Part shown: positions 6,699 to 32,000 of the stretch, piece by piece
Numbering within the stretch: position 1 is the first letter of the stretch
Layout: every line of letters starts with the position of its first letter
Origin: Desulfobulbus propionicus DSM 2032
Lineage (GTDB): Bacteria > Desulfobacterota > Desulfobulbia > Desulfobulbales > Desulfobulbaceae
Direction of reading: 5' to 3'
Assembly: GCF_000186885.1 (NCBI RefSeq)
Contig: NC_014972.1
Span: forward strand, 120,001-152,000
Length of the DNA: 32,000 nt
Notes under the pieces: generated by a model
What the model was told of the DNA's origin: nothing
Database searches by the model: none
The model's input: the letters and a program-made list of their open reading frames with translations, nothing else
Position numbers and translations under genes: made by a program

Positions 6699-6771
6699 AT
6701 CGATAATGATTTTTTGTTGATGAATCGATACACTAATAATTTTTAAACTTGTAATGATGAAATTTGTTGAT
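6696..6771 (+). promoter_or_regulatory. AT-rich repeat cluster upstream of the sensor kinase gene
   Basis: TGAATCGATA occurs at 6696-6705 and 6721-6730. TAATGAT-(3/4 nt)-TTTGTTGAT occurs at 6704-6721 and 6752-6771. The stretch is sharply AT-rich in a GC-rich genome. Confidence 0.45.
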
Positions 6772-6790
6772 AAGATGTTGAAAAAAAATT

Positions 6791-9514
6791 ATGAAGAAAT
6801 ATTACTTTTTATATCGTCATTCGTCGTTATTTTTTTTTATGGGTCTCTCTTTTTTCCAATCCATTGAAGATGCAAAAACAATCTCTCAATCACGCCTTGA
6901 GCGTGAGAAGTCGGCTCTCAACTCCCTGCAGCATATCTCTGACGCTCTTCTGCACGAGAGACAGTGGCTGTTCCAACAGATCGCGAACAGTGACAAAGTG
7001 CGGGGATACTTCATCGGTGAATCGGTCGGCATGACCAAAGAATATGGTCTCAAGGCCGGGGCCGACGCAGTTACCAGGTACTTTGATGAGGTGATCTCTG
7101 GGAAAGGAAAAGATCGTCATTTTTCAGCGCTGGTCCTCTATGACCGCCAGGGACAGGTCATTGCCCAGGCCGGGCCATCGTTTCCCCTGGATAGAAACGA
7201 ACTTGCCGCCGGCGAGGTTGGATTCCAGGTGCAAAGCGACGAGGCGTTGGGGGATTACCTGCTCCTGACCGCCAGTGTCACGGTGGCAGGGGAGGCCGTC
7301 GGCGCACTGGTCGGCGTCATCTCCCTGGAAAGCTGGTTCACGCACCTGTTCGCTTCTGATCAGGCGAGTCCTCCTCTACCAAACCTCGACTTGGTCTTGC
7401 TGGTCGGTCCGACGCGAATCCATCCAGCTACCGTCCACGAGGCGATCAAAAAACCTGCGCGCAGTTTGGTCGAAGAGGCCAGAGCCACGGCCCAGCCTGC
7501 TTTCGCCTCCATCCTGGAAGACGAGGCCGGCAGCACCCTGGTTTTCGTCCTCAACCATTCACCCTACAGTGACCTGAACCTTGTCCGGGTGATGGAAGCT
7601 GATCTCGTGGGCCTCGGTTCCGATGGATATACCCGGCATGTATTCATTGGTGTTTTTTTCGCTCTGACTGTGCTTTTCTTTCTCCTGGCCCTGCGCTTGT
7701 ACTACAGATCGATTTTCCTCGCGGCGGAAGTGACCGCTACTCAGCAAGCGAATGCGCTCGTCACCAGCAAGAACGAACAACTTGTTCGGGAGATGGCGGA
7801 GAAAAAGCGAATCAGGGAGGCCCTGGCATCGAGGGAATCGCTGCTGTCTGGTCTCATCAACACAACGCCCGACCTGATTTTCTACACTGACAGCGATGCC
7901 GCTGTTCTTGGCTCCAATGCCTCTTTCAATCAGTTTTTTGCCATTACCGATGCCAACGCTACCGGGTCGGACCAACGCGCCATCACCCGGTTTTTTTCGT
8001 TCATCAATGAGCACAGGCAGGCTGTCTTGGTGGACAGGAAGACGGTGTCGTTGGAGGAGTGGGTACGGAACACTGCCGGTGAGGAACAGCTGTTCGATTG
8101 TCTGATCACCCCTTTCATAAAGGAAGACGAGGAACGCCCGGGCCTGTTGGGTGTTTTCCGCGATGTCACCGACAACCGTCGCCTGGCCCTGGAAGTGCAG
8201 CGCCAGGAAGAACAGTTTAAGCTCATCCTGGAGGGGGTCAATATCGGGGTATGGAGAGTGTGTGTGGACACGGGCGAGGTACAGGTGAGCAAGGCCGGGG
8301 AACTGCTCGGCTTTGCCCCGGAGAAACTCGAACATCTCACCATCGAAACCTTTCTTGACCTTATCCATCCGGCGGAACAGTCAGGCCTGCATCGGCTACT
8401 CCTCGACTGCCTTGAGGGCGAAAGCAATTTTCTGGAACACGAGTTCCGCATGCGCCACCAAGACGGTTGCTGGACCTGGGTCTTTGCGAAAGGACGGATG
8501 TTCAGCCAAAACGAGCTGCGTCAGGGGCGATGGTTCGTCGCCATACTCGTGGACATTTCCAGTAGAATATCGGCGGAACAGGAACTGCAGGCGATGAACA
8601 ACTTGCTGGAAGAACGCATCGCCCAACGGACGGAAGAATTGAACAAGGTGTACGCCCAGCTGATGCAGCAGGAAAAGATGGTGGCCCTGGGGCAATTGGC
8701 CGCGGGTATTTCCCATGAACTCAACAACCCGGTCAATTTCATTCAGATCAATTTCGCCACGCTGCAGGGCTACTTCACGGATTTCATGGAACTGTACCGG
8801 TTGTACCGGGAGTCCTTGGAGGGCCTTGATACCAGGGAACACTCACCGGTACGTCGTGCGCTCGACAAAAGGGAACAGGAGATACAGTTGCGCGAGATCC
8901 TGCTCGACATTCCGCTCCTGTTCGACGAGACGGAAAGAGGCTTCGACCGTGTCGCCCACATCATCGGGTCGATGCGCAACTTCAGCCGACAGAACAAGGA
9001 AACGGTCTTAGAAGAGGTGGATATCAACGAGTGCATCCAGGACACCATCACCCTGGCATACAGCCTGTACAAGTATGAGGCGGACGTTCTCACCCGGCTG
9101 TACAAGTATGAGGCGGACGTTCTCACCCGGCTGGGGCAGCTACCACGCATCCAGGGCGTCGGCGAGTTGCTCAATCAAGTTTTTCTCAATCTGATAGTGA
9201 ATGCCGCGCAGGCCATTCGCGACAGCGAGACCCGCGATCGGGGGCGGATTGTCATCGAAACATGGAGTGACGCTGACAATGTCCACTGCACGGTAAAGGA
9301 TGACGGCCCGGGGATTACTGAGGAGCATCTGCCGCGGTTGTTCGAGCCGTTCTTCACGACCAAGGAGCCGGGAAACGGGACGGGCCTGGGCTTGAGCGTT
9401 TCCTATGACATTGTGGTGAACAAGCACAACGGCAGCCTGGTTGCCGGCAACCAGGTCAAAGGCGGCGCGGTGTTCACGGTCAGCCTGCCGCTGCGGCAGC
9501 CGAACCTGCAGTGA
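6791..9514 (+). CDS. sensor histidine kinase (signal anchor, ~260-aa extracytoplasmic domain, TM, 2 PAS, HisKA, HATPase_c)
   Basis: 907-aa ORF. TM helix [26 protein letters not shown]-like regions. H-box [16 protein letters not shown]-box [17 protein letters not shown]-boxes KDDGPGI and [10 protein letters not shown]. Confidence 0.9.
9065..9130 (+). repeat. perfect 33-bp tandem duplication inside the kinase gene (in frame, 11 aa)
   Basis: CTGTACAAGTATGAGGCGGACGTTCTCACCCGG occurs at 9065-9097 and again at 9098-9130, giving [11 protein letters not shown] twice just upstream of the N-box. The next three bases (CTG) repeat the first three bases of the unit. Confidence 0.95.
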
Positions 9515-19094: not shown

Positions 19095-19915
19095 TTCAGG
19101 TCGTTGATTACCCGCCTGACTTCCTCGGTAAAGACATCCATTGCCTCGAGTTCGCCTGGCCGTATCGCCCGATAGCCCCCCAGCTTGTTCTCAGTAAAAT
19201 ATGTTTGCGCTTTTTGTGTCCCGGCGAAGGTTGACAGCGCCGCTTCGATGGCTTGCCGATGGTCGGCTCTCCGGCTGTTTAGCAGGTACACTCGGCCCAA
19301 CATGGGTTCACTCTCGGCAATGATTCGCAGCTGCTTCCGGACCTCCGGCGCAAGTCGCTGAAAATTGGCCAGCGAAACAAACCCGGCATCTGCGTCCTTT
19401 GCCAGGAGGAGTTGGGCTACGCTGTCCGCAGCGCTGACGTATCGAACGGACTGCGGTTGCACTTGGTTCTGCTTGAGCCAGTGCTGACCCCACAGGGTAA
19501 CCTGGGAGGTCGGGCTCAACCCGAGTACTTTCTTGTCGTTCAGATCGGCCGGCGTATTGATGTCGCCATTCTGCAGACCAATCACCAACGACTTGAAGTC
19601 AGCCTTGTAAGTTAGAAGAGGGAGATAGCCAGCATCGAGCTGCAGCAAGCGAGCCTGCTGACCGGTGGTGACGACGAGATCGTATTCCTGGGCCAGCGCC
19701 CGTTTCGCGAATAGGTCAAAGTTGGGCGCGGTGGTTAATTCCACCGGCATGGCGAGCGATTTTTCCAGATACAGGCGAAGCGGTTCATACATCTGCAAGA
19801 TAAGCCGGGGACTGCTGTGCGGCGCGATTCCGATGACAAAGTGCTCCTCGTGGGCAGAGAGACAAATGGTGGGCCCAAGAATCAGCAGAATTAAGAATAA
19901 AATTAGTTTTTTCAT
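19091..19915 (-). CDS. PhnD-like (phosphonate-type) periplasmic binding protein
   Basis: ORF 19091..20092. I place the start at ATG 19915 (MKKLILFLILLILGPTICLSA, a signal peptide). The body resembles the PhnD/Phosphonate-bd family (FVIGIAPHSSPRLILQMYEPLRLYLEKSL..VELTTAPNFDLFAKRALAQEYDLV). Confidence 0.75.
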   Translation of the reverse strand: MKKLILFLILLILGPTICLSAHEEHFVIGIAPHSSPRLILQMYEPLRLYLEKSLAMPVELTTAPNFDLFAKRALAQEYDLVVTTGQQARLLQLDAGYLPLLTYKADFKSLVIGLQNGDINTPADLNDKKVLGLSPTSQVTLWGQHWLKQNQVQPQSVRYVSAADSVAQLLLAKDADAGFVSLANFQRLAPEVRKQLRIIAESEPMLGRVYLLNSRRADHRQAIEAALSTFAGTQKAQTYFTENKLGGYRAIRPGELEAMDVFTEEVRRVINDLK

Positions 19916-19981
19916 GCAGTTGTTTTTTTTGTTGGTATGAGAGGACATTCGCCTGGAAGGGTACACGTATCCTCCCACGAA

Positions 19982-20011
19982 ATTGTATAGCATTCTCCTT
20001 GAGGGAAACAA
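19982..20011 (-). promoter_or_regulatory. sigma70-type promoter candidate for the four-gene signalling operon
   Basis: The minus strand reads TTGTTT, an 18-nt spacer, then TACAAT, about 65 nt upstream of ATG 19915. The -35 is weak. Confidence 0.3.
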
Positions 20012-20358
20012 GGAAAGAATGGTTCGCCCGGAGATTGAGGACGGATGATACTTGATAGAGGACGTGGAAGCGTGATCTTTGTTCATTGGCAACTCGTGGA
20101 CAGGAGGGGGCTAATCTCGTGCTGAAATGTAATTCGTCGGAGATGGTGATAGCAGCATGCAAGATACCTGCCAGATTGATTGCCGGAGTCGTTTGCAGGA
20201 CAATGTGTTCTGCCTCCTCCTCAGTCGCGCGACCGAGGGGAACCGTGCGCATGACCTATAGATAAAACAGACCGGACGTAGGCCCGTGTGCCGCAACGGC
20301 GCGAAGCGGTTCCAATCGGAAAATTACGAACTATCTGCTCATGTTCGTGCTTTTTCTC

Positions 20359-20386
20359 TTGCAGCACTCATCGAATCATCTATAAA
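20359..20386 (+). promoter_or_regulatory. sigma70-type promoter candidate facing the recombination module
   Basis: TTGCAG (20359-20364), a 16-nt spacer, then TATAAA (20381-20386). This would give a leader of about 410 nt. Confidence 0.3.
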
Positions 20387-20721
20387 TATTTTCATTCTTC
20401 CGGCTCATTTTCAATGAGATACCCCTATTCAGGGTTTAGCTGAGCACGGTTTTCGTGTTCTTGCATTTCAGGTACGATGGCGGCGCTGTTGTTTCCGGTC
20501 GGGACGTTACATCGCTAAGGCGAACGGTCCCCTTCATCCGGCAGCAAAGCGCGCAATGGCTTGCGATTCTATTTTCTGCATCGCCTGCCCGTCAGCCTTT
20601 CCTTTTTCTTCCCGTCTATCGCTGAACTGACCTTGCCGCCGTGTTGCGGCTGACCGTTCCGGCACACTCCCTTTCCCGCACCGGCACTGACCCCTCAGTC
20701 CACCGGTTTCATCCATACCCA

Positions 20722-20730
20722 CCCCCCCCC
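20722..20730 (+). repeat. C9 homopolymer flanked by ATCCAT direct repeats
   Basis: ATCCAT ACCCA CCCCCCCCC ATCCAT spans 20711-20736, in the leader of the Rad52-like gene. Confidence 0.9.
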
Positions 20731-20737
20731 ATCCATC

Positions 20738-20784
20738 GGGAGCGATCTACCATGCTCCCGGCGGAGCCATGCGTTGTCGCTCCC
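20738..20784 (+). promoter_or_regulatory. compound stem-loop just upstream of the SD of the Rad52-like gene
   Basis: Outer 8-bp stem GGGAGCGA (20738-45) with TCGCTCCC (20777-84). Inner 5-bp stem GCTCC (20754-58) with GGAGC (20763-67). The SD AGGAGG is at 20794. Confidence 0.45.
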
Positions 20785-20806
20785 ATTATTCTCAGGAGGC
20801 ACCACC

Positions 20807-21469
20807 ATGGCACCACTGCAGGAACAGATCCAGGCCATCAACCAGCGCTTGCGCGCCTTCGGCATCGAGGCGGTCCAGGAGATCCGCATGACTGACCGGG
20901 ACGGCAAGACCATCGGTCAGGTCAAGTACGGCTACCGGCCGCAGTACGTCTTTGACAGCGTCAACGAAGTACTTGGTCCGGAGAACTGGCGCTACGAACT
21001 GACCCGCGAGGAGATCTTCGAGAACCAGGCGGTCGCCGAGGTCCGGCTTTTTGTCCGGGTTGACGGTGACTGGCTGTGCAAGGGCTCGCACAAGGGCCAG
21101 ATGCAGATCGTCAAAGGCAATGTCGGCGACGCCCAGAAAGGGGCGATCACCGATGCCATCCAGAAGTGCATGTCGCTGTTGTCCATCGGCAGCGATGCCT
21201 ACAAGGGCCTGCTGAAGCACGTCTTCCAACCGTCTAACAAAACGCCATCGACCCCACCCCCACCACCAACCAACCAACTTGCAGGCCCACCGCCTGTTGG
21301 CTCCGATCCCACCGTTGACCTGCCCAAGATCGCCGGCGTCACCTTCGAACACCGTCAGGGCGTGATTCTCGCCATGGGCGAGCACCTCTATGACAAGAAG
21401 GAGCTGCTCAAGGCCGCGGGCTTTCAATGGGACAAGACCGGCAAGGCCTGGCTGAAAAAAGCTGCCTGA
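20807..21469 (+). CDS. Rad52/Sak-family single-strand annealing protein with a C-terminal mini-domain
   Basis: ORF 20774..21469. ATG 20807 is preceded by AGGAGG. YVFDSVNEVLGPENW and GDAQKGAITDAIQKCMSLLSIGSDAY match the pattern of phage Rad52-like annealases. A Pro-rich linker follows, then ...YDKKELLKAAGFQWDKTGKAWL. Confidence 0.75.
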   Translation: MAPLQEQIQAINQRLRAFGIEAVQEIRMTDRDGKTIGQVKYGYRPQYVFDSVNEVLGPENWRYELTREEIFENQAVAEVRLFVRVDGDWLCKGSHKGQMQIVKGNVGDAQKGAITDAIQKCMSLLSIGSDAYKGLLKHVFQPSNKTPSTPPPPPTNQLAGPPPVGSDPTVDLPKIAGVTFEHRQGVILAMGEHLYDKKELLKAAGFQWDKTGKAWLKKAA

Positions 21470-21522
21470 TCACCCAACCCAACCCCGGAGGGAGTGAGAC
21501 CATTCCCTCGGCGGGAACCGGT

Positions 21523-21552
21523 GTCTCCTCCCTCATCCATTTAGGAGGAGAC
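21523..21552 (+). promoter_or_regulatory. hairpin that pairs the SD of the Cas4-like gene
   Basis: Perfect 9-bp stem GTCTCCTCC (21523-31) with GGAGGAGAC (21544-52) and a 12-nt loop. The 3' arm is the Shine-Dalgarno sequence of the ATG at 21557. Confidence 0.55.
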
Positions 21553-21556
21553 CACC

Positions 21557-22528
21557 ATGTCGGACCAGATGCTCACCACCCTGCAAGCCGCCCTGCAGCA
21601 GCTTGCCAGCCAGCAGACCGCAGCCACGCTCGGCGACCGCAGCACCTATCTCGGTGCCTCGGACATCGGCGCCTGCCCGCGCAAAACCATTCTCGCTAAA
21701 CGCAACGCCCCGGAGGCGGACCTGATCACCCTGTTGCGCCACCGCCGCGGCCACATGGCCGAGGAGATCGTGGCTGCCGCCTTCGCAGTCGCCGGGTTCA
21801 CCAACTTCCAGCGCCAGGTCGAGGTGCGCCACACCGGCGACATCCCGGTCATGGCCCACCTGGATTTTGTGTTCGTCTCGGAGGCCCGCAAGACCATGGC
21901 CGTGCTCGAGGTGAAATCGCCGGAGAACATCCCCACCGACCCCTACGGCGCCTGGGAGACCCAGCTGTACCTGCAAATGGGACTCCTGGCCGAGAACTGT
22001 CCGGACTACACCGTGGAAAAGGGCGCCATCCTGGCGGTCAACTTCGGTGCCCAGGGCATGCGCCTGTTCAACGGCTACACGCCCCAGGCCACCATCTACC
22101 AGGGGCTGATCGACCGGGCCGGTTCCATCTGGGACCAGTACCAGCGCTACAGCGCCGGCGACCTGGCCTTCCCGGGCATGGAAGCCGGCCCGCTCTGCGG
22201 CTACTGCCCCTTTCTTCTGGACTGTCCCAAGTTCGCGGCGGAAGAGGTGCAGGAACTGAACGAGAACGTCGAGATCCTTATCGAACTGCAGCACCAGCAG
22301 CGGGACCTGGAGGCCGAGATCGGCCTGCGCAAGACCGACCTGCTGGCCATCGTCAGCCAACGCGGCCCGCTCAAGGCCCACGGCCAATTGCTCCGCCAGG
22401 CGGTGCGCACCCGCAAGGTGCTCGACACCGACCGGCTCGGACAGTTCCTCCAGGGCTACGGCCAGTCGCTCGCTGATTTCCAGAAGAGCAGCACCTACTC
22501 CTTCCTGGAGATTCGCAAGGCCGCCTGA
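21557..22528 (+). CDS. PD-(D/E)XK exonuclease, Cas4/RecB-like, with four Cys (Fe-S type)
   Basis: HLDFVF...LEVKS (D...ExK), TQLYLQ, one N-terminal Cys (GACPRK) and C-terminal CGYCPFLLDC (C-x2-C-x5-C). It sits between an annealase gene and ssb. Confidence 0.7.
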   Translation: MSDQMLTTLQAALQQLASQQTAATLGDRSTYLGASDIGACPRKTILAKRNAPEADLITLLRHRRGHMAEEIVAAAFAVAGFTNFQRQVEVRHTGDIPVMAHLDFVFVSEARKTMAVLEVKSPENIPTDPYGAWETQLYLQMGLLAENCPDYTVEKGAILAVNFGAQGMRLFNGYTPQATIYQGLIDRAGSIWDQYQRYSAGDLAFPGMEAGPLCGYCPFLLDCPKFAAEEVQELNENVEILIELQHQQRDLEAEIGLRKTDLLAIVSQRGPLKAHGQLLRQAVRTRKVLDTDRLGQFLQGYGQSLADFQKSSTYSFLEIRKAA

Positions 22529-22623
22529 GCCGGCCGGATCGCAACACCCCAACCCATCATCGGGGAGCCAACCTTTCCCCGTGGCGGGGAGGGGTTGGTC
22601 CCTGTTGCTCAAGGAGAACCACC

Positions 22624-23016
22624 ATGTTGAACAAGACCATGCTGATCGGCAACCTCGGCGCGGACGTGGACATCCGCTACACCAAGAACCAGGTGGCCGT
22701 GGCCACCTTCCGGGTAGCCACCACCGAACGGTGGCGGGATGCCCAGGGCAACCCCCAGGAAGCCACCGAGTGGCACCGCATCGTGGCCTTTGCCAAGCTC
22801 GCCGAGATCTGCGGCGCCTACTTGGCCAAGGGCGCGCGGGTGTACATCGAAGGCCGCCTGCAGACCCGCAAGTGGCAGGACACGGACGGTGGCAACCGCT
22901 TCACCACGGAGATCATCGCCCGCGAGATGAAGATGCTCGGCGGCGGTGACCGCAACGCCCCGCCGGCACCGCCGGAGGAGCAGGAACCGCCCGTGAGTGA
23001 CGAGGTCCCGTTCTGA
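22624..23016 (+). CDS. ssb: single-stranded DNA-binding protein
   Basis: MLNKTMLIGNLGADVDIRYT...EWHRIVAF...VYIEGRLQTRKWQD, then a Pro-rich tail and the acidic tip DEVPF. Confidence 0.95.
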   Translation: MLNKTMLIGNLGADVDIRYTKNQVAVATFRVATTERWRDAQGNPQEATEWHRIVAFAKLAEICGAYLAKGARVYIEGRLQTRKWQDTDGGNRFTTEIIAREMKMLGGGDRNAPPAPPEEQEPPVSDEVPF

Positions 23017-23112
23017 TCGGTCCCTTGCCCTGAGCCTGGACCCCGCAGCCGCGGGGTTCGGGCTTGCCGGGCACAGGTGGCCGTCAGGCCCCCCCAACCA
23101 GGAGAACCGTGT

Positions 23113-23319
23113 ATGACCCAAATAACCGCACCCGCCCGGCAGGCCGCTCGCAGCAGCCTGAGCCCGGGTGATTCCCCGCGCACGCTTGAAACCATGATCC
23201 TCGATCTGCTCACCGATACCCTGCACCTGGCCCGGATCGAGGGGCTGGATGCCTGCCAGCTCGGCTCTGCCGCGATGGCCCGCTTCCTGGTCGAGATCAA
23301 GCACTCACGCAGCCACTGA
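23113..23319 (+). CDS. hypothetical protein (68 aa)
   Basis: ORF 23077..23319. ATG 23113 has AGGAGA 7 nt upstream. No family recognised. Same strand and format as its neighbours. Confidence 0.45.
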   Translation: MTQITAPARQAARSSLSPGDSPRTLETMILDLLTDTLHLARIEGLDACQLGSAAMARFLVEIKHSRSH

Positions 23320-23422
23320 CACTGCGGCCACTGCTCTCGGCCCACGGTCACGGTCATCGACCTGGCCGGGGCCGGGATGCTGAACATCCGCCAGATCGTT
23401 TCCCACCACCAACCACCCATCC

Positions 23423-23460
23423 GGGGGAGTCTGCCCCCATGGGGATGTCTCCCCCTTTTT
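23423..23460 (+). terminator. hairpin plus T5, intrinsic-terminator-like, inside the module
   Basis: 7-bp stem GGGGGAG (23423-29) with CTCCCCC (23449-55), followed by TTTTT (23456-60), then AAGGAGA and ATG 23475. Confidence 0.5.
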
Positions 23461-23474
23461 CAAGGAGAGACATC

Positions 23475-24041
23475 ATGCCCGACTATCTCACCGTTCGCAG
23501 CCACGGCGTCGTCACCTACTGCGATGGCCTCATCGCCCGCATTCAGGCGGATCAGGCCGAGGCCTATCTGCTCAGCCTGGTTGGCAGCCCGGAGCATATC
23601 CAGGCCACCTCGACCCATTTCACCATGGGCGGCGCCTGCCATATCACCGGCATCGAGTCCGTACCGCTCGAGTTGGGCCGTGCCCCTGGCCCCCTCCGCT
23701 CCATCCGCGCACGCAGGATCGGCGACGTGGTCACCAGGGTGATTATCAGCGCCGATCAGTTCGCCCGCACCGCCCTGCAGACCGAAACCGTCTGTTCCGC
23801 CATTGTCTTTGGCATGGACCTGGCCGCGGTCCGGCAGCAGGCCTGGCACCGCCTGGCCAACAGCACCACCGTGGCGCTGCTACCCGAGTGGCGCGACTGG
23901 TTGTGGGACGAAGTCCTGCAGCCGGAGCGGCTCTATTCCTTTGGCAACCCGCAACGGCGGCAGGCCTGGAGGATCAGCTGGCAGGAGGAGGAGTTGGCCG
24001 AACGGGTCCGGGCCGGCGTCCGGGAGCAGGTTCTCGGCTGA
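23475..24041 (+). CDS. hypothetical protein (188 aa)
   Basis: ORF 23439..24041. ATG 23475 has AAGGAGAG upstream. The upstream part of the ORF is occupied by the terminator-like hairpin. No family recognised. Confidence 0.55.
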   Translation: MPDYLTVRSHGVVTYCDGLIARIQADQAEAYLLSLVGSPEHIQATSTHFTMGGACHITGIESVPLELGRAPGPLRSIRARRIGDVVTRVIISADQFARTALQTETVCSAIVFGMDLAAVRQQAWHRLANSTTVALLPEWRDWLWDEVLQPERLYSFGNPQRRQAWRISWQEEELAERVRAGVREQVLG

Positions 24042-24142
24042 CCGAACCGCAGACCAATCCGAACAGGGGAAGGCAGGCCTGCCCCTGAAAGACAAGGTTG
24101 CGGCGCAGGACCACGGCCGCAATTCAAGCGAAAAAAATCCCT

Positions 24143-24181
24143 GACGGGGCACACGGCCCCGATGGGCTGTTGTGCCCCGTC
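24143..24181 (+). promoter_or_regulatory. 11-bp perfect stem-loop immediately upstream of the radC SD
   Basis: GACGGGGCACA (24143-53) with TGTGCCCCGTC (24171-81) and a 17-nt loop. The SD AGGAGG follows at 24185. Confidence 0.55.
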
Positions 24182-24196
24182 CCCAGGAGGCACGAC

Positions 24197-24676
24197 ATGC
24201 TCTACAGCAGAGACACCAGCGGGTGCTACCAGCCCGCATCCAGGGACACCATCCTTGCCGCGGCCCGCAGGCTGAGCAGTTGTCAGCTCCGGCGCGGGGC
24301 GGCCATCACCTCACCCCTTGCCGCCAGGGAGGCCATCGGCCTCAAACTGGCCGGACTGGAACACGAATCGTTCGCCTGTCTGTTCCTCGACGGCCGCCAC
24401 CAGGTGCTCGCCTGGCGGGAGCTGTTCCACGGCTCGGTCAACCGGACCACGGTCCACCCGCGCGAGATCGTCAAGGAGGCGCTGCGGCTGAACGCCGCGG
24501 CGGTCATCCTGGCGCACAACCACCCCTCGGGCAGCACCCTGCCGAGCAGTGAGGACATCGAACTGACCAAGGCGCTCACCGAGATCCTGGCGATCATCGA
24601 TGTGCGCGTGCTCGATCACCTGATCGTGGGCGAAGAGATCGTCGCCCTGACCGAAACCGGCCACCATCAACCATGA
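24197..24676 (+). CDS. radC: RadC-like JAB/MPN domain protein
   Basis: ORF 24098..24676. ATG 24197 is preceded by AGGAGG. ILAHNHPSGSTLPSSEDIELTKAL (the HNHPSG...SxxD JAMM motif) and VLDHLIVG. Confidence 0.9.
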   Translation: MLYSRDTSGCYQPASRDTILAAARRLSSCQLRRGAAITSPLAAREAIGLKLAGLEHESFACLFLDGRHQVLAWRELFHGSVNRTTVHPREIVKEALRLNAAAVILAHNHPSGSTLPSSEDIELTKALTEILAIIDVRVLDHLIVGEEIVALTETGHHQP

Positions 24677-24734
24677 AACCCGTTGGGGACAGATGCCCCG
24701 ACGGGCTCGTCCCCGGCAATCAAGGAGCGAGATC

Positions 24735-25655
24735 ATGCAACCTGTCAAACCATCCATCTACGAGCAAATCACCGGCAAGATCGTCACCGCCCTGGAGAAC
24801 GGCGTCAACCCCTGGGCCAAACCCTGGCACACGGTCAGCTACGGACCGTTTCGTAATGCGCTCACCAACCGCCCGTACCGGGGCATGAACGTGCTCCTGC
24901 TCAACCTGGTGGCGCTGTCGCGGGGGCATGTCGACCCGCGCTGGCTCACCTTTCGCAATGCCGAGCAGTTGGGCGGCCATGTGCGCAAGGGCGAGAAAGG
25001 TGCGGCCATCGTCTTCTGGAAGTTCCTGCCCGCCCGGGACCGGGATGGCGAGACCGAACCGGACGCGGCCAACGATGACGAACCGGAGCGGAAACAGGTC
25101 CCCTTTGCCCGCAGCTACACGGTGTTCAACGTGGAGCAGTGCGAGGGGCTGAAGCTGCCACCGCTGGACGCGGAGGAAATGCAAGGCAGGAGAGAGGACA
25201 ATGAACCGGCGGAGCGGGTGCTGGCCCTGGCGCAGCTGCAGCATGGCGGCAACAAGGCCTGTTACCTGCCCACGCCGGACCTGGTGCTCCTGCCGAACCG
25301 ATCCGCGTTCGAGAACTGCGACTTCTACTACGCCACCGGCTTCCACGAGATCTGCCACTGGACCGGGCACGCGACCCGGCTGAACCGGGTGTTCGGCAGC
25401 CGCTTCGGTGACCTCGGCTATGCCTTCGAGGAACTGGTGGCCGAGATCGGCGCCGCCTTCCTCGGCGCACAGACCGGTATCCCGTTTGAGAACATGCGCC
25501 ATCCGGAGTACATCCACCACTGGCTGCAGATCCTCAAGGGCGACAGCAAGGCTATCTTCACCGCCGCGGCCAAGGCCCAGCACGCCGTCGACTTTGTCCT
25601 CGACCAGGCCGGGATCGTCCCTGCCGAGGAAGAGACGCTGCCGGCGGCCGCTTGA
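24735..25655 (+). CDS. ardC: ArdC-family anti-restriction protein (N-terminal ssDNA-binding domain plus zincin-like metalloprotease domain)
   Basis: ORF 24693..25655. ATG 24735 has AAGGAG upstream. IYEQITGKIV..NPWAKPW..YRGMNVLLL..WLTFRNAEQLGGHVRKGEKG matches the ArdC N-domain pattern. HEICHWTGH is an HExxH motif. Confidence 0.9.
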   Translation: MQPVKPSIYEQITGKIVTALENGVNPWAKPWHTVSYGPFRNALTNRPYRGMNVLLLNLVALSRGHVDPRWLTFRNAEQLGGHVRKGEKGAAIVFWKFLPARDRDGETEPDAANDDEPERKQVPFARSYTVFNVEQCEGLKLPPLDAEEMQGRREDNEPAERVLALAQLQHGGNKACYLPTPDLVLLPNRSAFENCDFYYATGFHEICHWTGHATRLNRVFGSRFGDLGYAFEELVAEIGAAFLGAQTGIPFENMRHPEYIHHWLQILKGDSKAIFTAAAKAQHAVDFVLDQAGIVPAEEETLPAAA

Positions 25656-26166
25656 ATACCGAAAGAAAACCCGTAACAAAAACGGCTGCTCCGACCATGA
25701 CGGTCGGGCAGCCGTTTTTTGTTGCGGCTTGATGGGGAAAGAAGGACAAGAAGCAGAGTCTTCGGTCAGAAGCGAAGAAACCTGTAAGTTCGTTTTCAAA
25801 TGCTTTTGCACTTAACGGGTCATTGTTTACTTCGTAAGGCAACTGCATCCAAGGTTGCCTTTCACCAATTGTTCTATCATTCAGGCCGTTTTCAGATACA
25901 CATAACCTATATTCGGCGTATAATGATTTTCGCTTTCCAAAAAATGGAATCATCCCGATCGCCAATGTAGCTGGTGTAATTACCATTTTATCATGCGGGT
26001 TATCAACTGACTTAGCCCCATATTGATCTATAGTCCCAGTGGAATTCATTGACAGAATAACGGATTTAAAGCGAAGCTCAATTGGAGGAACATTGACCCC
26101 CCAAGAGTCCATGATAAAACTGTCTTCTTCCACGTTTAATACAACCGGAAGCAGGCAAAATGTCAT
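25558..26166 (-). pseudogene. unassigned ORF, probably a 3'-truncated remnant
   Basis: The low-GC part (about 25800-26166) has no recognisable domain and poor SD sequences. The reading frame has no stop of its own. It runs through the bidirectional terminator and ends antisense inside ardC, which is not what an intact gene would do. Confidence 0.3.
25678..25720. terminator. strong bidirectional rho-independent terminator
   Basis: 13 bp of stem: CGGCTGC (25683-89) with GCAGCCG (25708-14), and CCGACC (25691-96) with GGTCGG (25702-07). 5-nt loop. A5 lies on the left (25678-82) and T6 on the right (25715-20). It is 23 nt after the ardC stop. Confidence 0.8.
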
Positions 26167-26498
26167 TACGTGCGGATGATCTAATTTTCCAATATGTTTG
26201 CAGCTTCACATAGTAGTTCAGGATTAGCAGCGCCAGTTTTGTATAAATAATCCAGAGCAGACCGGTTTTGTCCTCCAGAGGTAGGGTTTATCAATTCTAT
26301 TTATTATTTAGTCCACATCATTTTTCAATTACGATAAAATTTTTAATTTGACGTATTGCGAAGTCTTTTTTTCAAGTCTATGAGGATATAGGGATGGACG
26401 GTTTCTAAATTAATGTGAACTGGAGTTATATGAACTTTCACCATGAACTAAAATAGATTTGCCCACTATTTCACAATTTTTTATTTATAATAGGTGTC

Positions 26499-27647
26499 TT
26501 ACAGGCCATCTGTAAGATTATGTAGAATATTCCTTGCATTAAGCAGAACATCATCATATGTCATAATGTTTATGCGAGGGTATAAGTTATCATTAAATGA
26601 TTTAAGAACTCTCAGCTGTGTACTATTCATTCCAGCCTTTCGCCCAATGACCACTACACCCTTTGGCGTGTGAATTCCAGGAAATCCGTGAGATTGAGCA
26701 TAGGCAATATTGTCTTCTATCCACACAAACCAATTCAGAATTTGCCCAATTGCATGTGACAATGCACCTGATGGATGAGGGTATCCTGTACATGGTTGGT
26801 CCTGTGGTTTTTCTATTTCAACGAAAATATACTCGTCATCAAGGCGTCGTATAACAAAGTCTGTTTTCCACTCTGCCCCAAGATATTGACGATCTACTAT
26901 TGAAGAAGCAAGTGGGTCAATTAATGCTGGGTTTTTTTCAAAAAACTGCTGACACTCACTCTCTGGCCTGTTTTTTGCTATCAAACTTTCAAGCTCGTCA
27001 CATATCGGTTCACTAATTCTTAGCGTCCCTCTGGAAATGGCCTTAAGCACTATATCAATGCCTGATGGACCATCATCGCCCCTTTTAGCCATTTTTGAAC
27101 TCATAAAAATGGCAACAAGTTTATGCCGTTGCTCTGGATCTGAAAGAAATGCATGCACAATACTTGTCAGTGCACTTTCCGCATAAGCAGGAAGGTGCTG
27201 CTGGGTACTTAAACTGGTAACGCTATTTTGAAGGTTCTCATATGCATCATCTTCGAGGTAAGCTTGAGTGAATCTAAGTATTCCGCAAATTTCATTCCAT
27301 CGGGACAATGCCACCGATATCAAGATGTGCGGGACCCAGTACTCTCCCTCTAGTCCCAATTCCAGCAGTTCTCGAATGCCAGTCTCCCCATATATGACAA
27401 GCGAATAGATGCTTGGCATTTCAAGATAAAAATCATCATAAATACCAGAGGGAGCTCGGCGAGCGAGGTCTACATGTTCCAGGATTCGCTTCGGTGATGG
27501 ATTTGTCAATACATCGGCAAGATCCAAGACAAACTGGCGCTCCTTTTCTTTCCACTTGCTGAGATCAAGTTTTTCTATTCTGTCTTCTGGGTTTTTCTCG
27601 GATTCGGAAGTTTTTTTTGTAATATTCCCAGCATGGTCTGTCGGCAA
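26499..27647 (-). CDS. Shedu-like defence nuclease (DUF4263-type C-terminal domain) with an unassigned helical N-terminal half
   Basis: TTG start at 27647 with AGGAGG 5 nt upstream. The C-terminal ~150 aa follows the DUF4263/SduA pattern: CQQFFEKNPALI, LGAEWKTDFVIRRLDDEYIFVEIEKP, SHAIGQILNW, KGVVVIGRK, INIMTYDDVLL. Confidence 0.6.
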   Translation of the reverse strand: MPTDHAGNITKKTSESEKNPEDRIEKLDLSKWKEKERQFVLDLADVLTNPSPKRILEHVDLARRAPSGIYDDFYLEMPSIYSLVIYGETGIRELLELGLEGEYWVPHILISVALSRWNEICGILRFTQAYLEDDAYENLQNSVTSLSTQQHLPAYAESALTSIVHAFLSDPEQRHKLVAIFMSSKMAKRGDDGPSGIDIVLKAISRGTLRISEPICDELESLIAKNRPESECQQFFEKNPALIDPLASSIVDRQYLGAEWKTDFVIRRLDDEYIFVEIEKPQDQPCTGYPHPSGALSHAIGQILNWFVWIEDNIAYAQSHGFPGIHTPKGVVVIGRKAGMNSTQLRVLKSFNDNLYPRINIMTYDDVLLNARNILHNLTDGL

Positions 27648-27897
27648 GGTTTCCTCCTATATCTTTACAAAACCGCGCTCTGTAGCAATTACGGGAGTCC
27701 GGTAGGTTGGGGTGAGAAACGAACCCCAACAGCATCGTTCTGTCTCGCCATAGCCTTTTTTCACTTTTGTCGATTTTGACTCCTGACGATTGAACTCACT
27801 GATTTTTACGGAGCGCAGCGGGGCAAATATCCAGTGCAGCGATTTTTTCGGCCCTTCTCTGATTCCCACAACTCGAAGGCCAATCAGACCAAAGCTT

Positions 27898-29790
27898 TTA
27901 GACGCCCACTTGTCCACCTGGGGTGGTCATTACTTCTCCTGCCATTCGGTTAGCGACTGCAGCAATCTCCGCTTCGGTAAGCCGATCAAGAGTCCAACCC
28001 TTTGCGAACTTTGCCGTCTCCGATTTAGGCAATTGGTCCTCTTCGAGATTTCGAATTCGAACTCGTGCGGGCATTGCAGCACCTTCGCCAACGAAGATAG
28101 CCTCCTGTTGAGCGAGATTCGGCAGTACTTTTGTCATGCCTGACAATCCATCTGGCAAGAAACGAGAGACGTGCTGTTGATCCGCTGCGTTTGTAAGCCG
28201 AAGAACGAGCCATGTGCCACATTGTGAAATCACTGTACTTTCTATATCGGCAGGGCGCTGACTCACGAGCATGAGGCCAATACCGTATTTCCGCCCTTCA
28301 CGAGCTATCCTTCGGATCGCGGTTTGAGCCGCTGCATACTCAGCCTCCCCTCTGTCGGGGACATATCGATGAGCCTCTTCACACACAAAGACGACTGGAT
28401 CGCGCCGTCTTTCCTCCGTTGTTTGGTAAACTTTATACTGAAACAACAGGCGAGCCAACATGGCAGCAAGTGGACCGGCGACTTCATTTGGAAGACCCGA
28501 AATATCCAAAATACGAATGTCTTGATCTACGCCTCCCTCACCTTGGATCTGTCCGACCAACTGGGCGATAATATGCTCAAGTGAATGGCTCTGTTCGTTC
28601 CACTCCTTCATCATAAACTGAATCCGCGGATCACGACGGAGCATTGATAGTTTGTCTAAAATCGATTTGAAGTCCTTTGCAAAATCACCAGGAGGAACCT
28701 TTTCTGTGTTCTGAGTATTTTTCTTCATTCGAGCTGCTTGAAGGAATTCAATGTGATTTTTGAGTTCTTCCAAACTAAAACAGCGCGGCTTATCTCGATC
28801 AAATTCGATCAGTTGTTCTATGCTGACACCAGCTTTCGGACGAGGAGTATCGGGATCACCGCCATCTGCTGGAATGGGCACGTCGTAGGTGGTCGGAGCG
28901 GGATCAACCAAATCGAATGCCACCATCCGTGCATGGGTCAACGCTTTGTAAATTACGTTGTTCTGTGAAGTTGCCTCATGCTCGGTTTTACCGATTACAA
29001 GCCGTCTGAACTCGTCAGCCGACATGAGCCAATAGGGAAGGCTTATCGGAGTTCCAGTCGTCTCTTCGTTTCCAAGCGGGTCGTAAGCACGATAAATGAT
29101 CGCACGTTTCTTGAATGCGTGGCCGTATTCCCCATGCGGATCAATTATTAGAATTCTCGGGTGGCAGACTGCATCCGGTACAGGGGTGTGCTCCAGCATG
29201 CTGTGAAGCAAAGCGGCAACCGCACCAGACTTTCCCGAACCTGTTGAACCGAGCACCGCGCAATGCATGCCCAGCATTTTATCCACGTTTGCCCGACAGA
29301 GTGCATTGTCTGCTCCAACGTAATGAGCAAATGGAACGAGCGGACTATATTCTCCGTGATTCTGTTGCCCTTCAGCAGCCGAATATATCTGAGTAGTCTC
29401 CTCGCGAGTAAGCAGATGCACACTTTGACGGGGTAGCGGGTAGGTCGTCACACCTCGAACGAACCGGAGCTTTTGGTCTGCTACATTCCATATACCTTCC
29501 GCAAACAATTCGACTTCCATTAACCGTTGATCGGCATCTGGTGGAATAGGCTTTGTAATCTCAAGGAGATCCTCAGACCTCATTCTTAGTAGCGTCACGA
29601 AACCGAAGACCAAGCGCCTTCCAAAATGAACTTTTACGATGCTACCGATCTGACCGATGGGATAAACTCTCCCCTCAAAGGTTCGAGTGAGCTCCGTGAC
29701 ATCTCCTGATAACTCTACCCGAATGGTAGTTCCGGACACTTCGACGATGTGCCCAATCTTCAGGTCCGGAATAAGTTCAAACGTATTCAT
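27898..29790 (-). CDS. herA: HerA-family ATPase (HAS-barrel plus FtsK/HerA P-loop)
   Basis: ORF 27898..29850. ATG 29790 overlaps the SIR2 stop (ATGA). Motifs: GHIVEVSGTTIRVEL..GSIVKVHF (barrel), AVLGSTGSGKS (Walker A), VVFVCEEAHRY (Walker B), GIGLMLVSQRPADI, LRLTNAADQ. Confidence 0.85.
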   Translation of the reverse strand: MNTFELIPDLKIGHIVEVSGTTIRVELSGDVTELTRTFEGRVYPIGQIGSIVKVHFGRRLVFGFVTLLRMRSEDLLEITKPIPPDADQRLMEVELFAEGIWNVADQKLRFVRGVTTYPLPRQSVHLLTREETTQIYSAAEGQQNHGEYSPLVPFAHYVGADNALCRANVDKMLGMHCAVLGSTGSGKSGAVAALLHSMLEHTPVPDAVCHPRILIIDPHGEYGHAFKKRAIIYRAYDPLGNEETTGTPISLPYWLMSADEFRRLVIGKTEHEATSQNNVIYKALTHARMVAFDLVDPAPTTYDVPIPADGGDPDTPRPKAGVSIEQLIEFDRDKPRCFSLEELKNHIEFLQAARMKKNTQNTEKVPPGDFAKDFKSILDKLSMLRRDPRIQFMMKEWNEQSHSLEHIIAQLVGQIQGEGGVDQDIRILDISGLPNEVAGPLAAMLARLLFQYKVYQTTEERRRDPVVFVCEEAHRYVPDRGEAEYAAAQTAIRRIAREGRKYGIGLMLVSQRPADIESTVISQCGTWLVLRLTNAADQQHVSRFLPDGLSGMTKVLPNLAQQEAIFVGEGAAMPARVRIRNLEEDQLPKSETAKFAKGWTLDRLTEAEIAAVANRMAGEVMTTPGGQVGV

Positions 29791-30965
29791 AGCGCACACG
29801 CTTCCGCTCCACAGTTTAGCATTTTGGTCACGCCAGAAAACGTCCACCAATCTCGTTTTGATCCAGAAACCGGAGGTGCTTGAGGTCCGTCTGCACCAAC
29901 ATACACGCCATCCTCCGAGATGACATAGACACGTTTACCCCACGGACCGGTCCTCCACCTTTCGAGATTCGGATTGAGTTTCTGAGTAAAGGAGAGAACC
30001 GTTGTTTTGTTCTCCGGACGTTGAAGCGTCAATTCAATTTCCTGGTTTATGTGCTCGTCCCCGAAGCTGTATCCACATGTTGCGAGAACATTTTCCTCCC
30101 GTGCCCCAAGTGAACGCCGGAATAGATCAAATTGGGCTGCAAATGGATCCCTCTGAGTCGCGAGGTATTTTGTGGATTGCGGGTAAATTAGAACCCGAGA
30201 AACCTTCTTTGGATAGAGATCTCCGTCGCGGACGCGCCAGACTCGGTCATCTTCTCCTAAGTGCCAGTCGATCGACCCGTGAAGTTTGATTACATGCGCA
30301 CGATCTCTGAGATTTGGCTCTTCGTCGCCGTAACGATGGCTGCGATATGCGACCGCGCCGCCAGAGAAGCCGTCCCAATACGAGAAGCCTCCAAGTGAAA
30401 GGGCGTCTTCGAGGAGAGTGTCATAGTTGGTGGTAAATAATCGGACCGCTCTCCGTCGTTCTGCGATTCCAGCTTGGCTTCTATTGAAGAGGGCAGAGAC
30501 GAATGCTAAATGGTCATCGATAACGACAATACGGTGCCTATCCGTCCCTATTTCCTCAGAAATTCCCCCAGGCTGAGCAGGTTTGTAACCCCATCGAATG
30601 GTCTCAGCAATCCATGTCAGAATTCTTTGGTGAAGACCATCAAGGTCATCCAATGATAGAGAAATAGCGTCGAAGGCGACCTTCTTGTCCTTTGAGCGGT
30701 CGGCGATCGCGCGGTGATCTCCGAGCTGACTCAAGATGTGCTCGATATGCGAATCGTCAGGAAGCTGGCTCTTTACGAACTCGAGAACTTTGATGTCATT
30801 CGGTTCCCCCTCGTCTTTTGCCCTCGTGAATACCCGATCGGTCAGCGGCCACATCAAAGGAATTCCAGCACCGAGGCTGATTCCTGCACCGAACAGCCAC
30901 GATTGATTACTTGCTGCCAAGAGATTGTCGAGCTGGGATAGAGTGTCCTTTGTTACTGGGTCCAT
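29787..30965 (-). CDS. SIR2-family NADase-type protein (SIR2_2-like)
   Basis: ORF 29787..31001. ATG 30965 has AGGAGA 9 nt upstream. Motifs: WLFGAGISLGAGIPLMWPL, RLFTTNYDTLLEDAL, VIKLHGSIDWH. Confidence 0.85.
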   Translation of the reverse strand: MDPVTKDTLSQLDNLLAASNQSWLFGAGISLGAGIPLMWPLTDRVFTRAKDEGEPNDIKVLEFVKSQLPDDSHIEHILSQLGDHRAIADRSKDKKVAFDAISLSLDDLDGLHQRILTWIAETIRWGYKPAQPGGISEEIGTDRHRIVVIDDHLAFVSALFNRSQAGIAERRRAVRLFTTNYDTLLEDALSLGGFSYWDGFSGGAVAYRSHRYGDEEPNLRDRAHVIKLHGSIDWHLGEDDRVWRVRDGDLYPKKVSRVLIYPQSTKYLATQRDPFAAQFDLFRRSLGAREENVLATCGYSFGDEHINQEIELTLQRPENKTTVLSFTQKLNPNLERWRTGPWGKRVYVISEDGVYVGADGPQAPPVSGSKRDWWTFSGVTKMLNCGAEACAL

Positions 30966-31083
30966 GTGCTTTGAATCTCCTTTTTTGTTGCAGCAGAACA
31001 AATTATTGTCCGGTTTCCAGCTATCATTCAGCTTTTCTGGATTATCCGTTCGTGATTGATGGATTTTGGGTTTGGCCTAACTG

Positions 31084-31251
31084 GACACCGGCGGCACTCT
31101 CGGTGAGCTGCCGCTTCCAGGTCGTGATCTGGGTCGGATGGACCTCGTAGTGCTGCGCCAATTCGCCGAGAGTCTTCTCACCGACAATGGCTTCCAGAGC
31201 CACCTTCGCCTTGAAGGCCGCTGAATGGTTCCGTCTCGTTCCTTTTGCCAT
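31084..31251 (-). pseudogene. truncated IS3-family transposase orfA (N-terminal HTH part only)
   Basis: MAKGTRRNHSAAFKAKVALEAIVGEKTLGELAQHYEVHPTQITTWKRQLTESAAGV is the typical IS3-family OrfA N-terminus, with AAGGAG 6 nt upstream of ATG 31251. The similarity stops after about 56 aa, exactly where the GC content drops. No orfB is present. Confidence 0.7.
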
Positions 31252-31273
31252 GTTCTGCTCCTTATTGTGCCCT

Positions 31274-32000
31274 TCACAGGGCGTTACGGGTAGCAGATTT
31301 TCCACTTAACGGCTTGTCCAATTTTCCGCAGCCACCTCTCAGGCGCAGCGCATTCATAATGACGCTGACCGAGGATAGAGACATGGCCGCCGCGGCAAAA
31401 ATCGGGCTCAGGAGTATTCCGAAAAACGGGTACAAAAGACCTGCCGCGACAGGAACACCGACCGAGTTGTACACGAAGGCGAAAAACAGGTTCTGCCGGA
31501 TATTGCGCATCGTTGCGAGAGAAAGCTGCCGCGCTTCCACAAGACCCATTAGGTCCCCTCGCAACAGCGTGATACCGGCACTTTCGATGGCGACATCGGT
31601 CCCCGTACCCATGGCCACGCCCACATCCGCCGTGGCCAGAGCCGGAGCATCGTTGACCCCGTCACCGGCCATGACCACCACGCGCCCCTCGTCCTTCAGG
31701 CGCTGAACAACCTTTCCTTTGTCTTCGGGCAAGACTTCCGCTTCAACGGCATCAATAGGCAGTTTGCGGGCAACCGCTTCCGCCGAAGTGCGGTTGTCGC
31801 CGGTGAGCATGACCACCCGGATGCCCTCTTTTTGCAGGGCGGCAAGGGCCGCTTCCGTGGTTGCCTTGACCGGATCGGCAATGGCAAGCAGGCCGCAGAC
31901 CTTGCCGTTCACTGCGGCAAAGATCACCGTGGCCCCGTCCCTTCGCAGTTCGTCGGCCGCATCCGCAAAGTCTGCCGTCTCGACTCCTTCCGCTTCCATC
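31274..32000 (-). CDS. heavy-metal-translocating P1B-type ATPase, C-terminal part (partial, continues beyond the window)
   Basis: [41 protein letters not shown], and the last two TM helices ([42 protein letters not shown]). Metal specificity cannot be read from this part. Confidence 0.9.

Follow-up and report, generated by a model that had tools for sequence, protein, structure and literature searches.

How did a low-G+C stretch of defence genes, all on the minus strand, come to lie beside the anti-restriction gene ardC in Desulfobulbus propionicus DSM 2032, and does it hold an unrecognised defence system? The stretch, which we call the island, occupies positions 25782-31084 of the 32,000 nucleotides analysed here (contig NC_014972.1, positions 120,001 to 152,000; hereafter the window). 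Our analysis suggests that the island is horizontally acquired defence cargo, now decaying, which probably lies in a hotspot at the right end of the conserved SSB-RadC-ArdC module of a mobile element and has an integron-cassette history. It comprises three independently mobile modules in one orientation, namely a SIR2-HerA operon, a Shedu gene, and a dead gene of a rare, probable HEPN family; a 1-kb microhomology deletion has cut its left end, and a truncated IS3 element bounds its right end. The parts are known systems, no intact unrecognised system is present in the island, and the hotspot is newly described, if conceptually familiar.

The island differs in composition from the DNA around it. 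Its G+C content is 0.465, compared with 0.593 for window positions 1-20397 and 0.643 for the block that carries ardC (20398-25781), and 500-bp windows average 0.467 inside it and 0.603 (standard deviation 0.049) elsewhere in the window. In the sliding-window profile, G+C is 0.63-0.66 at 24.8-25.7 kb, drops to 0.29-0.44 at 25.7-27.6 kb, stays at ~0.50 until 31.1 kb, and is 0.57-0.63 beyond ~31.1 kb. The island is itself a mosaic, with the HEPN remnant and Shedu at ~0.40-0.42 and SIR2-HerA at ~0.50. The G+C content of third codon positions (GC3) is 0.35 in Shedu, 0.46 in HerA, and 0.51 in SIR2, compared with 0.65-0.91 in eleven other window genes. The tetranucleotide correlation with positions 1-20397 is 0.795 for the island and 0.54 for its Shedu and HEPN part, compared with at least 0.873 for control chunks of the same size. 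An earlier reading of this DNA from its letters only (the sequence-only reading) had taken the stretch for mobile-element cargo; the computed discontinuities in G+C, GC3, and tetranucleotides agree with horizontal acquisition.

The foreign DNA runs from the junction 25781|25782 to the junction 31084|31085. An abrupt G+C drop just right of the ardC terminator, with its edge at 25722, had been described by hand counts; the drop is present in the computed profile, but the edge lies 60 bp further on, at 25782, and the lower-G+C 60 bases 3' of the terminator are conserved backbone, not foreign DNA. On the right, the reported edge at 31084 is correct, but the recovery, described as exact, is gradual, passing through an IS3 stump (0.568) and an ATPase gene (0.61). 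Pfam and PADLOC agree with the reported co-oriented SIR2-HerA genes and Shedu-like gene, the reported ~0.8 kb of unassigned or decayed sequence is present as well, and every open reading frame (ORF) with family support in the island is on the minus strand. Weaker G+C dips (~0.50-0.53 in 1-kb windows) occur at 6000-7500 and 19500-20500; these are intergenic or gene-start regions among signalling genes and are much weaker than the island. As for direct repeats or target-site duplications flanking the island, only 14-16-nt pairs at chance level were found (a rough estimate gives ~0.8 such pairs expected). A megablast search of the island against plasmids returned nothing but a 128-bp IS-related match, no tRNA or Rfam match was found in the island at the gathering or E-value threshold, and a promoter scan gave sites no more numerous than in shuffled sequence. 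No further candidate gene or RNA was found within the island interval.

To the left of the island lies a conserved mobile-element block on the plus strand (20398-25781), which contains two unassigned proteins, SSB (22624-23016), small unassigned ORFs, RadC (24098-24676), ArdC (24693-25655), a terminator, and a repeat-bearing tail. SSB, RadC, and ArdC were assigned by Pfam, ArdC through its ArdcN and MPTase-PolyVal domains. The terminator is a bidirectional hairpin at 25681-25716, found by a terminator scan; the region 25671-25727 folds at -25.1 kcal/mol, and the hairpin is nearly invariant in 10 aligned relatives. We scanned the ArdC protein against 185,579 species genomes and examined 80 ArdC-relative loci. 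The scan returned Desulfobulbus and Desulfobulbaceae metagenome-assembled genomes (MAGs) at 76-81% identity, and the exact ArdC protein had no record in public assemblies. At the nucleotide level, the block is 70-80% identical to the MAG loci, with a sharp start at ~20398 and a sharp end at 25781. Beyond 25781 every relative differs from all others, and the flanks to the left of the block vary too. In the window the final ~25 bp of this tail are missing, in agreement with a deletion relative to a related contig, L176, described below.

All nine relatives with readable downstream sequence (9/9) carry defence cargo right after the ardC terminator, always convergent with ardC, and the systems differ: Dnd in L005, a DndH/SspC-like protein in L007, PglZ with a helicase in L008, a type I restriction-modification (RM) system (restriction enzyme) in L009, BrxC in L010, Gabija in L011, a weakly matched E2-like protein in L012, BrxL with a KAP NTPase in L013, and CBASS type II in L023. 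The idea that the island is the cargo zone of a mobile element is thus supported by a different defence system at that site in each of them. SIR2, HerA, or the window-type Shedu follows ardC in no relative. The sequence-only reading had also suggested that an empty site joining ardC to the IS and ATPase side might exist in related genomes; no such joining was found, and the relatives hold alternative cargo. The gene combination of the window occurs in 0/80 ArdC-relative loci and 0/80 SIR2-relative loci, so the gene order is not that of a conserved core genome, the arrangement which the sequence-only reading had named as evidence against itself.

Variable defence hotspots are known in mobile elements, among them integrative and conjugative elements (ICEs) such as SXT. 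As in such hotspots, a fixed backbone position carries a different defence system in each relative; here the position immediately follows the terminator of ardC and a tail of heptamer repeats, and the ends of the element are undefined. The three genes of the SSB-ArdC-RadC anti-restriction module of conjugative elements are present and conserved as a block, although no relaxase or type IV secretion genes lie in the window. That the host element is conjugative is suggested by this gene content together with ParA, which follows ardC in more distant relatives. The hotspot is found in Desulfobulbus-type sulfate reducers, which are little studied for immunity, and it may be mined for new systems.

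Several features of the backbone were observed beside the hotspot. AAGAAAC/GAAGAAAC heptamers occur in 5-7 copies ~20-170 nt after ardC in L005-L013 and L023, where they surround the ardC terminator and a small GGCCTTCGGCC hairpin. The window has decayed copies only (25660-25781), and GAAGAAAC repeats are not enriched in the window itself. The heptamers may delimit the hotspot as sites of protein binding or recombination. In L007, L010, L011, L012, and L023, ardC and the terminator are separated by an additional ~300 bp that contain a small conserved ORF; this segment is absent from the window, L005, L008, and L009. At the other end, the block (20391-20526) opens abruptly with TTCCGGCTCATTTTCAATGAGATACCCC, in which a small hairpin lies; ~135 nt of conserved non-coding DNA come next, and the fold reaches a z-score (z) of only -1.9. 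The block start may be the element end, an origin of transfer (oriT), or a single-strand promoter.

The cargo gene next to the hotspot border is a HEPN-family pseudogene (25782-26318, minus strand), recognised by tblastn, HMMER, and translation, which retains the first 179 of ~400 codons. Codons 5 and 6 are in-frame stops, 1 nt is deleted near 26184-26189, and tblastn places residues 1-45 (26318-26184) and residues 46-179 in two different frames. Only the beta-rich N-terminal domain of the protein is left in the window, and the C-terminal domain with the family motif is deleted. An HMMER search of 1.84 billion representatives with the first 130 residues of a 202-aa ORF at this position returned only ~11 relatives, which are ~388-410 aa long and to whose residues 52-179 the window fragment aligns. 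The 202-aa ORF itself (25558-26166) is not considered a gene, because its final ~70 codons run antisense to conserved backbone sequence and the remainder is the pseudogene read out of frame. The intact relatives share an invariant R-N-x3-H-G motif near the C-terminus (R346, N347, H351, G352), comparable to the Rx4-6H motif in the C-terminal helical domain of the HEPN superfamily (PF18735 RiboL-PSP-HEPN, PF18739 Apea-like HEPN). They match several Pfam HEPN models, all below the gathering score (best E=8e-6), and the copy in the window is dead. The predicted model of the family has a predicted local distance difference test score (pLDDT) of 83.5 and a predicted template modelling score (pTM) of 0.82. 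Foldseek matches it weakly to the HEPN structures 1o3u and 5yjc (probability 0.57-0.60); it has no significant match in PDB or BFVD, where the beta-rich N-terminal domain matches none. The family of ~400 aa is rare and, judging from the motif and these matches, probably of the HEPN (RNase) type. With an N-terminal domain of unmatched fold, it is a candidate defence gene.

The history of this pseudogene can be read from L176, a public contig of 2.7 kb that is 98.5% identical to window positions 27408-25782. In L176, an intact 408-aa HEPN gene (P0076) precedes a canonical attC site, to which the backbone tail known from the window is joined. The window corresponds to L176 minus 1,007 bp between two copies of ACAG, with the 3' part of the pseudogene lost; by its sequence, this loss is a microhomology deletion, which also removed the terminal attC. 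The window further differs from L176 by two GAA>TAA changes (26303 and 26306) and the 1-nt deletion. Compared with L176, the Shedu gene, sduA, has diverged by 0.33 per 100 nt (3 changes in 910 nt), and the pseudogene and the adjoining spacer about ten times more, by 3.2-3.9 per 100 nt. The spacer, between sduA and the pseudogene (26319-26498, minus strand), is AT-rich, with a G+C content of 0.29 and 3.9 differences per 100 nt to L176; it has no attC-like fold (z -0.16) and no Rfam match. The fragment length, the frameshift, the stops, and the comparison with L176 indicate that the decayed 0.8 kb is a dead copy of a third cargo gene plus a spacer, and on this sequence evidence the HEPN gene is non-functional in the window. 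The sequence-only reading had considered the island the likeliest place in the window for an unrecognised system; that expectation is not supported, as the 0.8 kb is a multiply inactivated, truncated, probable-HEPN gene with a spacer, and there is no other candidate. We note that many of the substitutions relative to L176 in 25782-26498 are G>T or C>A, both nonsense changes included.

A more distant homologue of the HEPN protein was seen in another setting. In L092-L095 (6990-9173), the 32%-identical homologue P0080 lies 3 nt after a 335-aa unassigned ORF, and the pair sits between an AbiJ/Abi_C gene and a cluster of type IV secretion system (T4SS) genes. P0080 and the 335-aa ORF may be a two-gene unit in the cargo of a conjugative element.

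At the other side of the island is the SIR2-HerA operon, consisting of sir2 (29787-30965, minus strand, 392 aa) and herA (27898-29790, minus strand, 630 aa). Both proteins have full-length matches to PADLOC models (SIR2 PDLC04088, E=4e-149; HerA PDLC04105, E=8e-140), and Pfam assigns SIR2_2 to SIR2 and DUF87/HerA to HerA. The stop of sir2 and the start of herA overlap in ATGA (4 nt), as read directly. SIR2 keeps both the catalytic Asn (TNYD, N180) and His (LHGS, H229), a dyad described previously (PMC11514289), and HerA has an intact Walker A motif (GSTGSGKS at residue 181) and Walker B motif (CEEAH at residue 470). The best solved relative of SIR2 is PDB 8w9l (E=7e-19, with the match limited to residues 169-319), and that of HerA is 8wiv (E=3e-69); the two chains co-occur in the SIR2-HerA complex entries 8wld and 8woc. 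HerA adjoins SIR2 in 74/80 SIR2-relative metagenomic loci. Characterised homologues come from S. aureus, Paenibacillus, and E. coli (PMC11514289, PMC11472057, PMC13434337). The window operon shares with the solved and tested systems the two-gene organisation, the start/stop overlap, the dyad, the Walker motifs, and the full-length PADLOC matches, although its SIR2 is only distantly related in sequence to the solved proteins. By analogy with these systems, the HerA ATPase and SIR2 would assemble into a large complex, infection would unleash the NADase of SIR2, and depletion of NAD+ would lead to abortive infection. The pair is intact and would thus be a two-gene abortive-infection system, its defence activity being assigned by the same analogy. 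Unlike the known systems, the operon here forms an integron-type cassette of 3.2 kb, whose attC is degenerate.

The cassette character emerges from comparison with the closest SIR2-HerA loci, L096, L097, and L098 (91-94% aa identity). Their homology to the window is confined to 30998 to ~27792, and the borders of the cassette are 30998 and 27795, at the G|TT crossover. The 5' end of the cassette (30966-30998, minus strand) starts with TTCTGCTGCAAC at 30998, where homology to L096 begins, and contains the ribosome-binding site AAGGAG. The cassette start TTCGGCTGCAAC (TTCTGC in the window) is preceded by unrelated sequences in L096, L097, and L098, and G|TT precedes it in the window as well as in L097 and L098. 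The cassette start of the relatives, TTCGGC, is the complement of their R'' core GCCGAA, which is expected of a cassette that circularises. After herA in L096, an attC site follows in which GGCCGAAC pairs with GTTCGGCC in an imperfect hairpin (z -4.2). The fold of the L097 attC has a z of -2.4, and in L098 a looser scan revealed an attC hairpin (z -3.5) immediately before the SIR2-HerA cassette. Canonical attC sites (GCCTAAC...GTTAGCC and others) also lie behind each of the genes that adjoin the cassette in L096 and L097, and in a neighbouring L097 cassette the R'' core GCATAAC complements the cassette's own first bases TTATGC. The attC 3' of the HEPN gene in L176 reads ACTTAAC...GTTAAGA (z -2.7). 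In L096, we also observed a ~50-nt repeat, GTTCCAGTCGACTACGTCGCCTGGAATCGCGGCGCTCACTTCGTTCGGC, at ~2090-2150 and 7215-7263, both copies of which end in GTTCGGC, a sequence resembling a core site; the repeat could represent a cassette without an ORF or a duplicated half of an attC.

At the 3' end of the window cassette lies a degenerate (pseudo) attC (27795-27853, minus strand), with R'' GCCGAAA, where AAC is expected, and R' G|TTCAAT; the cassette ends with the G at 27795. The 3' segment of the cassette (27792-27897), which includes the pseudo-attC, is 87% identical to its L096 counterpart. The spacer that follows, between the cassette end and sduA (27648-27794, minus strand), contains an 8-bp hairpin (27706-27730) and the ribosome-binding site of sduA; it has no homologue in any fetched locus, and its fold is not significant (z -1.4). 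The other spacers likewise have no significant attC-like folding and no homologues in any fetched locus. The empty site, reconstructed by joining the sequences of 86 bp and 147 bp on either side of the SIR2-HerA cassette, contains no recognisable gene. A strict attC scan of 80 SIR2-relative loci found canonical intergenic sites in L096, L097, and L152 only, which suggests that the more distant SIR2-HerA copies are not cassettes.

The SIR2-HerA and HEPN modules thus appear to be former integron gene cassettes, and Shedu is possibly one as well. This origin, which the sequence-only reading had not recognised, would account for the shared orientation, the foreign composition, and the sharp borders of the modules, and we infer that the transfer went from integron to island. 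There are published precedents for defence genes as integron cassettes or in CALINs, arrays of at least two attC sites (bioRxiv 10.1101/2024.07.02.601719; PMC12614218), and for a pseudo-attC carried by a defence system in a defence island that is not an integron (bioRxiv 10.1101/2024.07.02.601719). As in those defence-gene cassettes, the genes are co-oriented, the borders are at G|TT, and the core complements the cassette start (with the attC read in the relatives), and near-identical SIR2-HerA is found in two settings, amid canonical attC sites or, its own attC mutated, in a non-integron island. The present case differs from them in its large two-gene cassette of 3.2 kb without integrase or attI, in a hotspot beside ardC. 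SIR2, HerA, and Shedu are not mentioned in a published account of defence genes as integron cassettes. The comparison gives a base-resolved view of traffic between integrons and defence islands, as identical SIR2-HerA borders are found among canonical attC sites in the relatives and in the hotspot, where the attC is decaying.

The following points weigh against this interpretation. The attC sites were sought with a hand-written AAC...GTT hairpin scan and DNA folding rather than a calibrated IntegronFinder/HattCI model. In the window pseudo-attC (27853-27789), the terminal pairing is lost, R' is unpaired, and the fold has a z of +1.35; because it does not fold significantly, its identity rests on homology to the L096 site. 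No attC was found beside sduA in the window or in L176, and the hairpins beside an 87%-identical Shedu homologue in L088 are only attC-like. Neither an integron integrase nor attI was found in the scanned ORFs of the window or in the loci of the relatives, and the L096 and L097 arrays are recognised by their attC sites alone. As to the host element, no relaxase, T4SS, or integrase was found within the window, and the element is not delimited. A bolder extension of our interpretation would make the heptamer-bearing ardC end a dedicated capture site for defence cargo, whole integron cassettes included, which would enter by recombination between attC and secondary sites, and at the same time make the HEPN gene a new single-gene abortive-infection defence; taken together, we consider these two proposals rather unlikely. 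If the capture site were real, the element would be a sink that moves cassettes from integrons into transferable defence islands, and if the HEPN gene were such a defence, its cost would explain the repeated inactivation in the window.

The island could instead be an ordinary chromosomal defence island, beside which the ArdC block was inserted as a separate element, with the cassette likeness being incidental. Consistent with this, both flanks of the conserved block differ between genomes, the window has no integrase, relaxase, or T4SS, and the right side shows no element backbone but an IS3 stump and a metal-type ATPase gene. However, all nine relatives, with their different left flanks, carry convergent defence genes after the same backbone end, which is not expected of random insertion sites. 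L176, from a second sample, joins the same backbone tail to the same island, and the cassette borders and attC sites are specific. We therefore regard a chromosomal island as unlikely, and cargo at a hotspot of the ArdC-bearing element remains our preferred explanation.

The same cassette evidence raises the question of whether the array is still functional, as a CALIN or as part of an integron whose integrase lies just beyond the window. The co-oriented genes and exact cassette borders would fit such an array, as would the canonical attC that closes the L176 array and the core-site-like GTTAGGC at the IS3 junction. The sole attC of the window, however, has AAA for AAC in R'', an unpaired R', and no fold; the terminal attC is deleted, and none lies next to sduA. 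In addition, what lies upstream of the first cassette is neither attI nor intI but a truncated IS3 and then the 3' part of an ATPase gene. With one degenerate attC retained, the window holds neither a complete integron (intI and attI) nor a CALIN (at least two attC). A functional array is thus decidedly improbable; the absence of integrase and attI, together with the degenerate attC, suggests that the array is a decaying remnant. The expression of cassette arrays normally relies on a promoter upstream, and here sir2-herA is the first operon, located behind the left end of IS3 in the same orientation.

Between the operon and the pseudogene lies sduA (26499-27647, minus strand), an intact gene of 382 aa with a TTG start and an AGGAGG ribosome-binding site. 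Its product matches Pfam SduA_C (PF14082, DUF4263) with E=4e-20 (73 bits, with a cut-off of 27) and PADLOC SduA with E=5e-30 over residues 216-378. In the C-terminal PD-(D/E)xK nuclease domain, D263 and E277 are invariant and K280 is nearly invariant among 46 homologues. The AlphaFold model, built with the 46 homologues, has a pLDDT of 87.6, and its N-terminal residues 1-215 are helical. Foldseek aligns the model to SduA of E. coli (8ps5) and B. cereus (8ti9) with probability 1.00 and a template modelling (TM) score of 0.71 on the nuclease domain. By sequence, the N-terminal ~215 residues have no counterpart among solved structures or in the PADLOC and Pfam models, and a phmmer search of the protein against PDB found nothing at E<=0.01. 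The protein thus resembles the Shedu systems of E. coli (8ps4/8ps5) and B. cereus (8ti8/8ti9) in being a single gene with a C-terminal SduA_C nuclease and in its predicted fold, but its N-terminal ~215 residues match none of them by sequence. Shedu proteins form a family of self-contained nucleases in which the N-terminal domain is thought to sense or restrain, gating the cutting of invading DNA. By analogy, the N-terminal domain of the window protein would gate the cleavage of invading DNA by the PD-(D/E)xK domain. Upstream of sduA, an 86-aa ORF (27657-27917) was rejected as a gene; it matches no Pfam or PADLOC family and is not called by public gene callers.

The neighbouring position of the two intact systems could also mean that SIR2-HerA and Shedu form one new composite three-gene system, as the genes are adjacent and co-oriented and the exact arrangement is found again in several public assemblies. 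Those assemblies, however, represent the same element at 99.9-100% identity. None of the 80 SIR2-relative loci carries the window-type Shedu or the HEPN family. The Shedu homologues (81-87% nucleotide identity) adjoin a type I RM system or an AAA_21/DUF4435 gene, and their loci match the window over 26492-27670 only, so that they stand alone in unrelated contexts. The 250-bp spacer between herA and sduA, which carries the ribosome-binding site of sduA itself, and the G+C content of 0.42 for Shedu compared with 0.50 for SIR2-HerA also speak against joint function. Because the homologues of SIR2-HerA and Shedu occur in separate contexts, a composite system is highly improbable, and we prefer to view them as separately acquired modules. 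A SIR2-HerA pair in another arrangement was observed in L105 (9276-9521), where a RadC gene lies ~250 bp downstream of the pair (86% aa identity to the window SIR2) in convergent orientation, reminiscent of the RadC/ArdC surroundings in the window.

An assembly chimera or a chance fluctuation in composition has a negligible probability: short public contigs do break near both island ends (L001, 25694-31127), but L003 (window 25602-28597, 99.9% identity) crosses the left junction, L002 (window 26243-31315, 100% identity) crosses the right one, L176 also crosses a junction, and the differences in G+C, GC3, and tetranucleotides are far above the spread within the window. As both junctions are reproduced in independent public assemblies, the compositional break is not an assembly artefact. 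We note that L001, a Logan contig, stops ~30-90 bp outside each island junction; such ends would be expected if the flanks (the ardC terminator and IS3) had more than one context in that sample.

To the right of the SIR2-HerA cassette lies an unassigned 86-bp piece (30999-31084, minus strand), which begins with the core-site-like CAGTTAGGCC. Its last ~20 nt resemble the L097 sequence upstream of the cassette, with L097 homology extending to 31018; the fold of the piece (z -0.7) gives no convincing attC. Beyond it, Pfam agrees with the flanks named in the sequence-only reading, which had placed ArdC and RadC on the left of the island and an IS3 stump and a metal-efflux ATPase on the right. The IS3-family stump (31085-31341, minus strand, 257 bp) consists of a left inverted repeat (TGAGAGG... 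at 31341), a leader, and orfA as far as codon 56. As it breaks off at 31085 and has no orfB, it is not a whole IS3 element. It matches Pfam HTH_Tnp_1, and blastn matches to IS3-family transposase genes in 844 plasmid records cover 31085-31340. The remainder of the window (31342-32000, minus strand) is the 3' part of a P-type (HAD-domain) ATPase gene (Pfam Hydrolase, E=3e-22). The left end of IS3 lies within the last codons of the ATPase gene, whose reading frame enters the stump for 22 codons (31274-31341).

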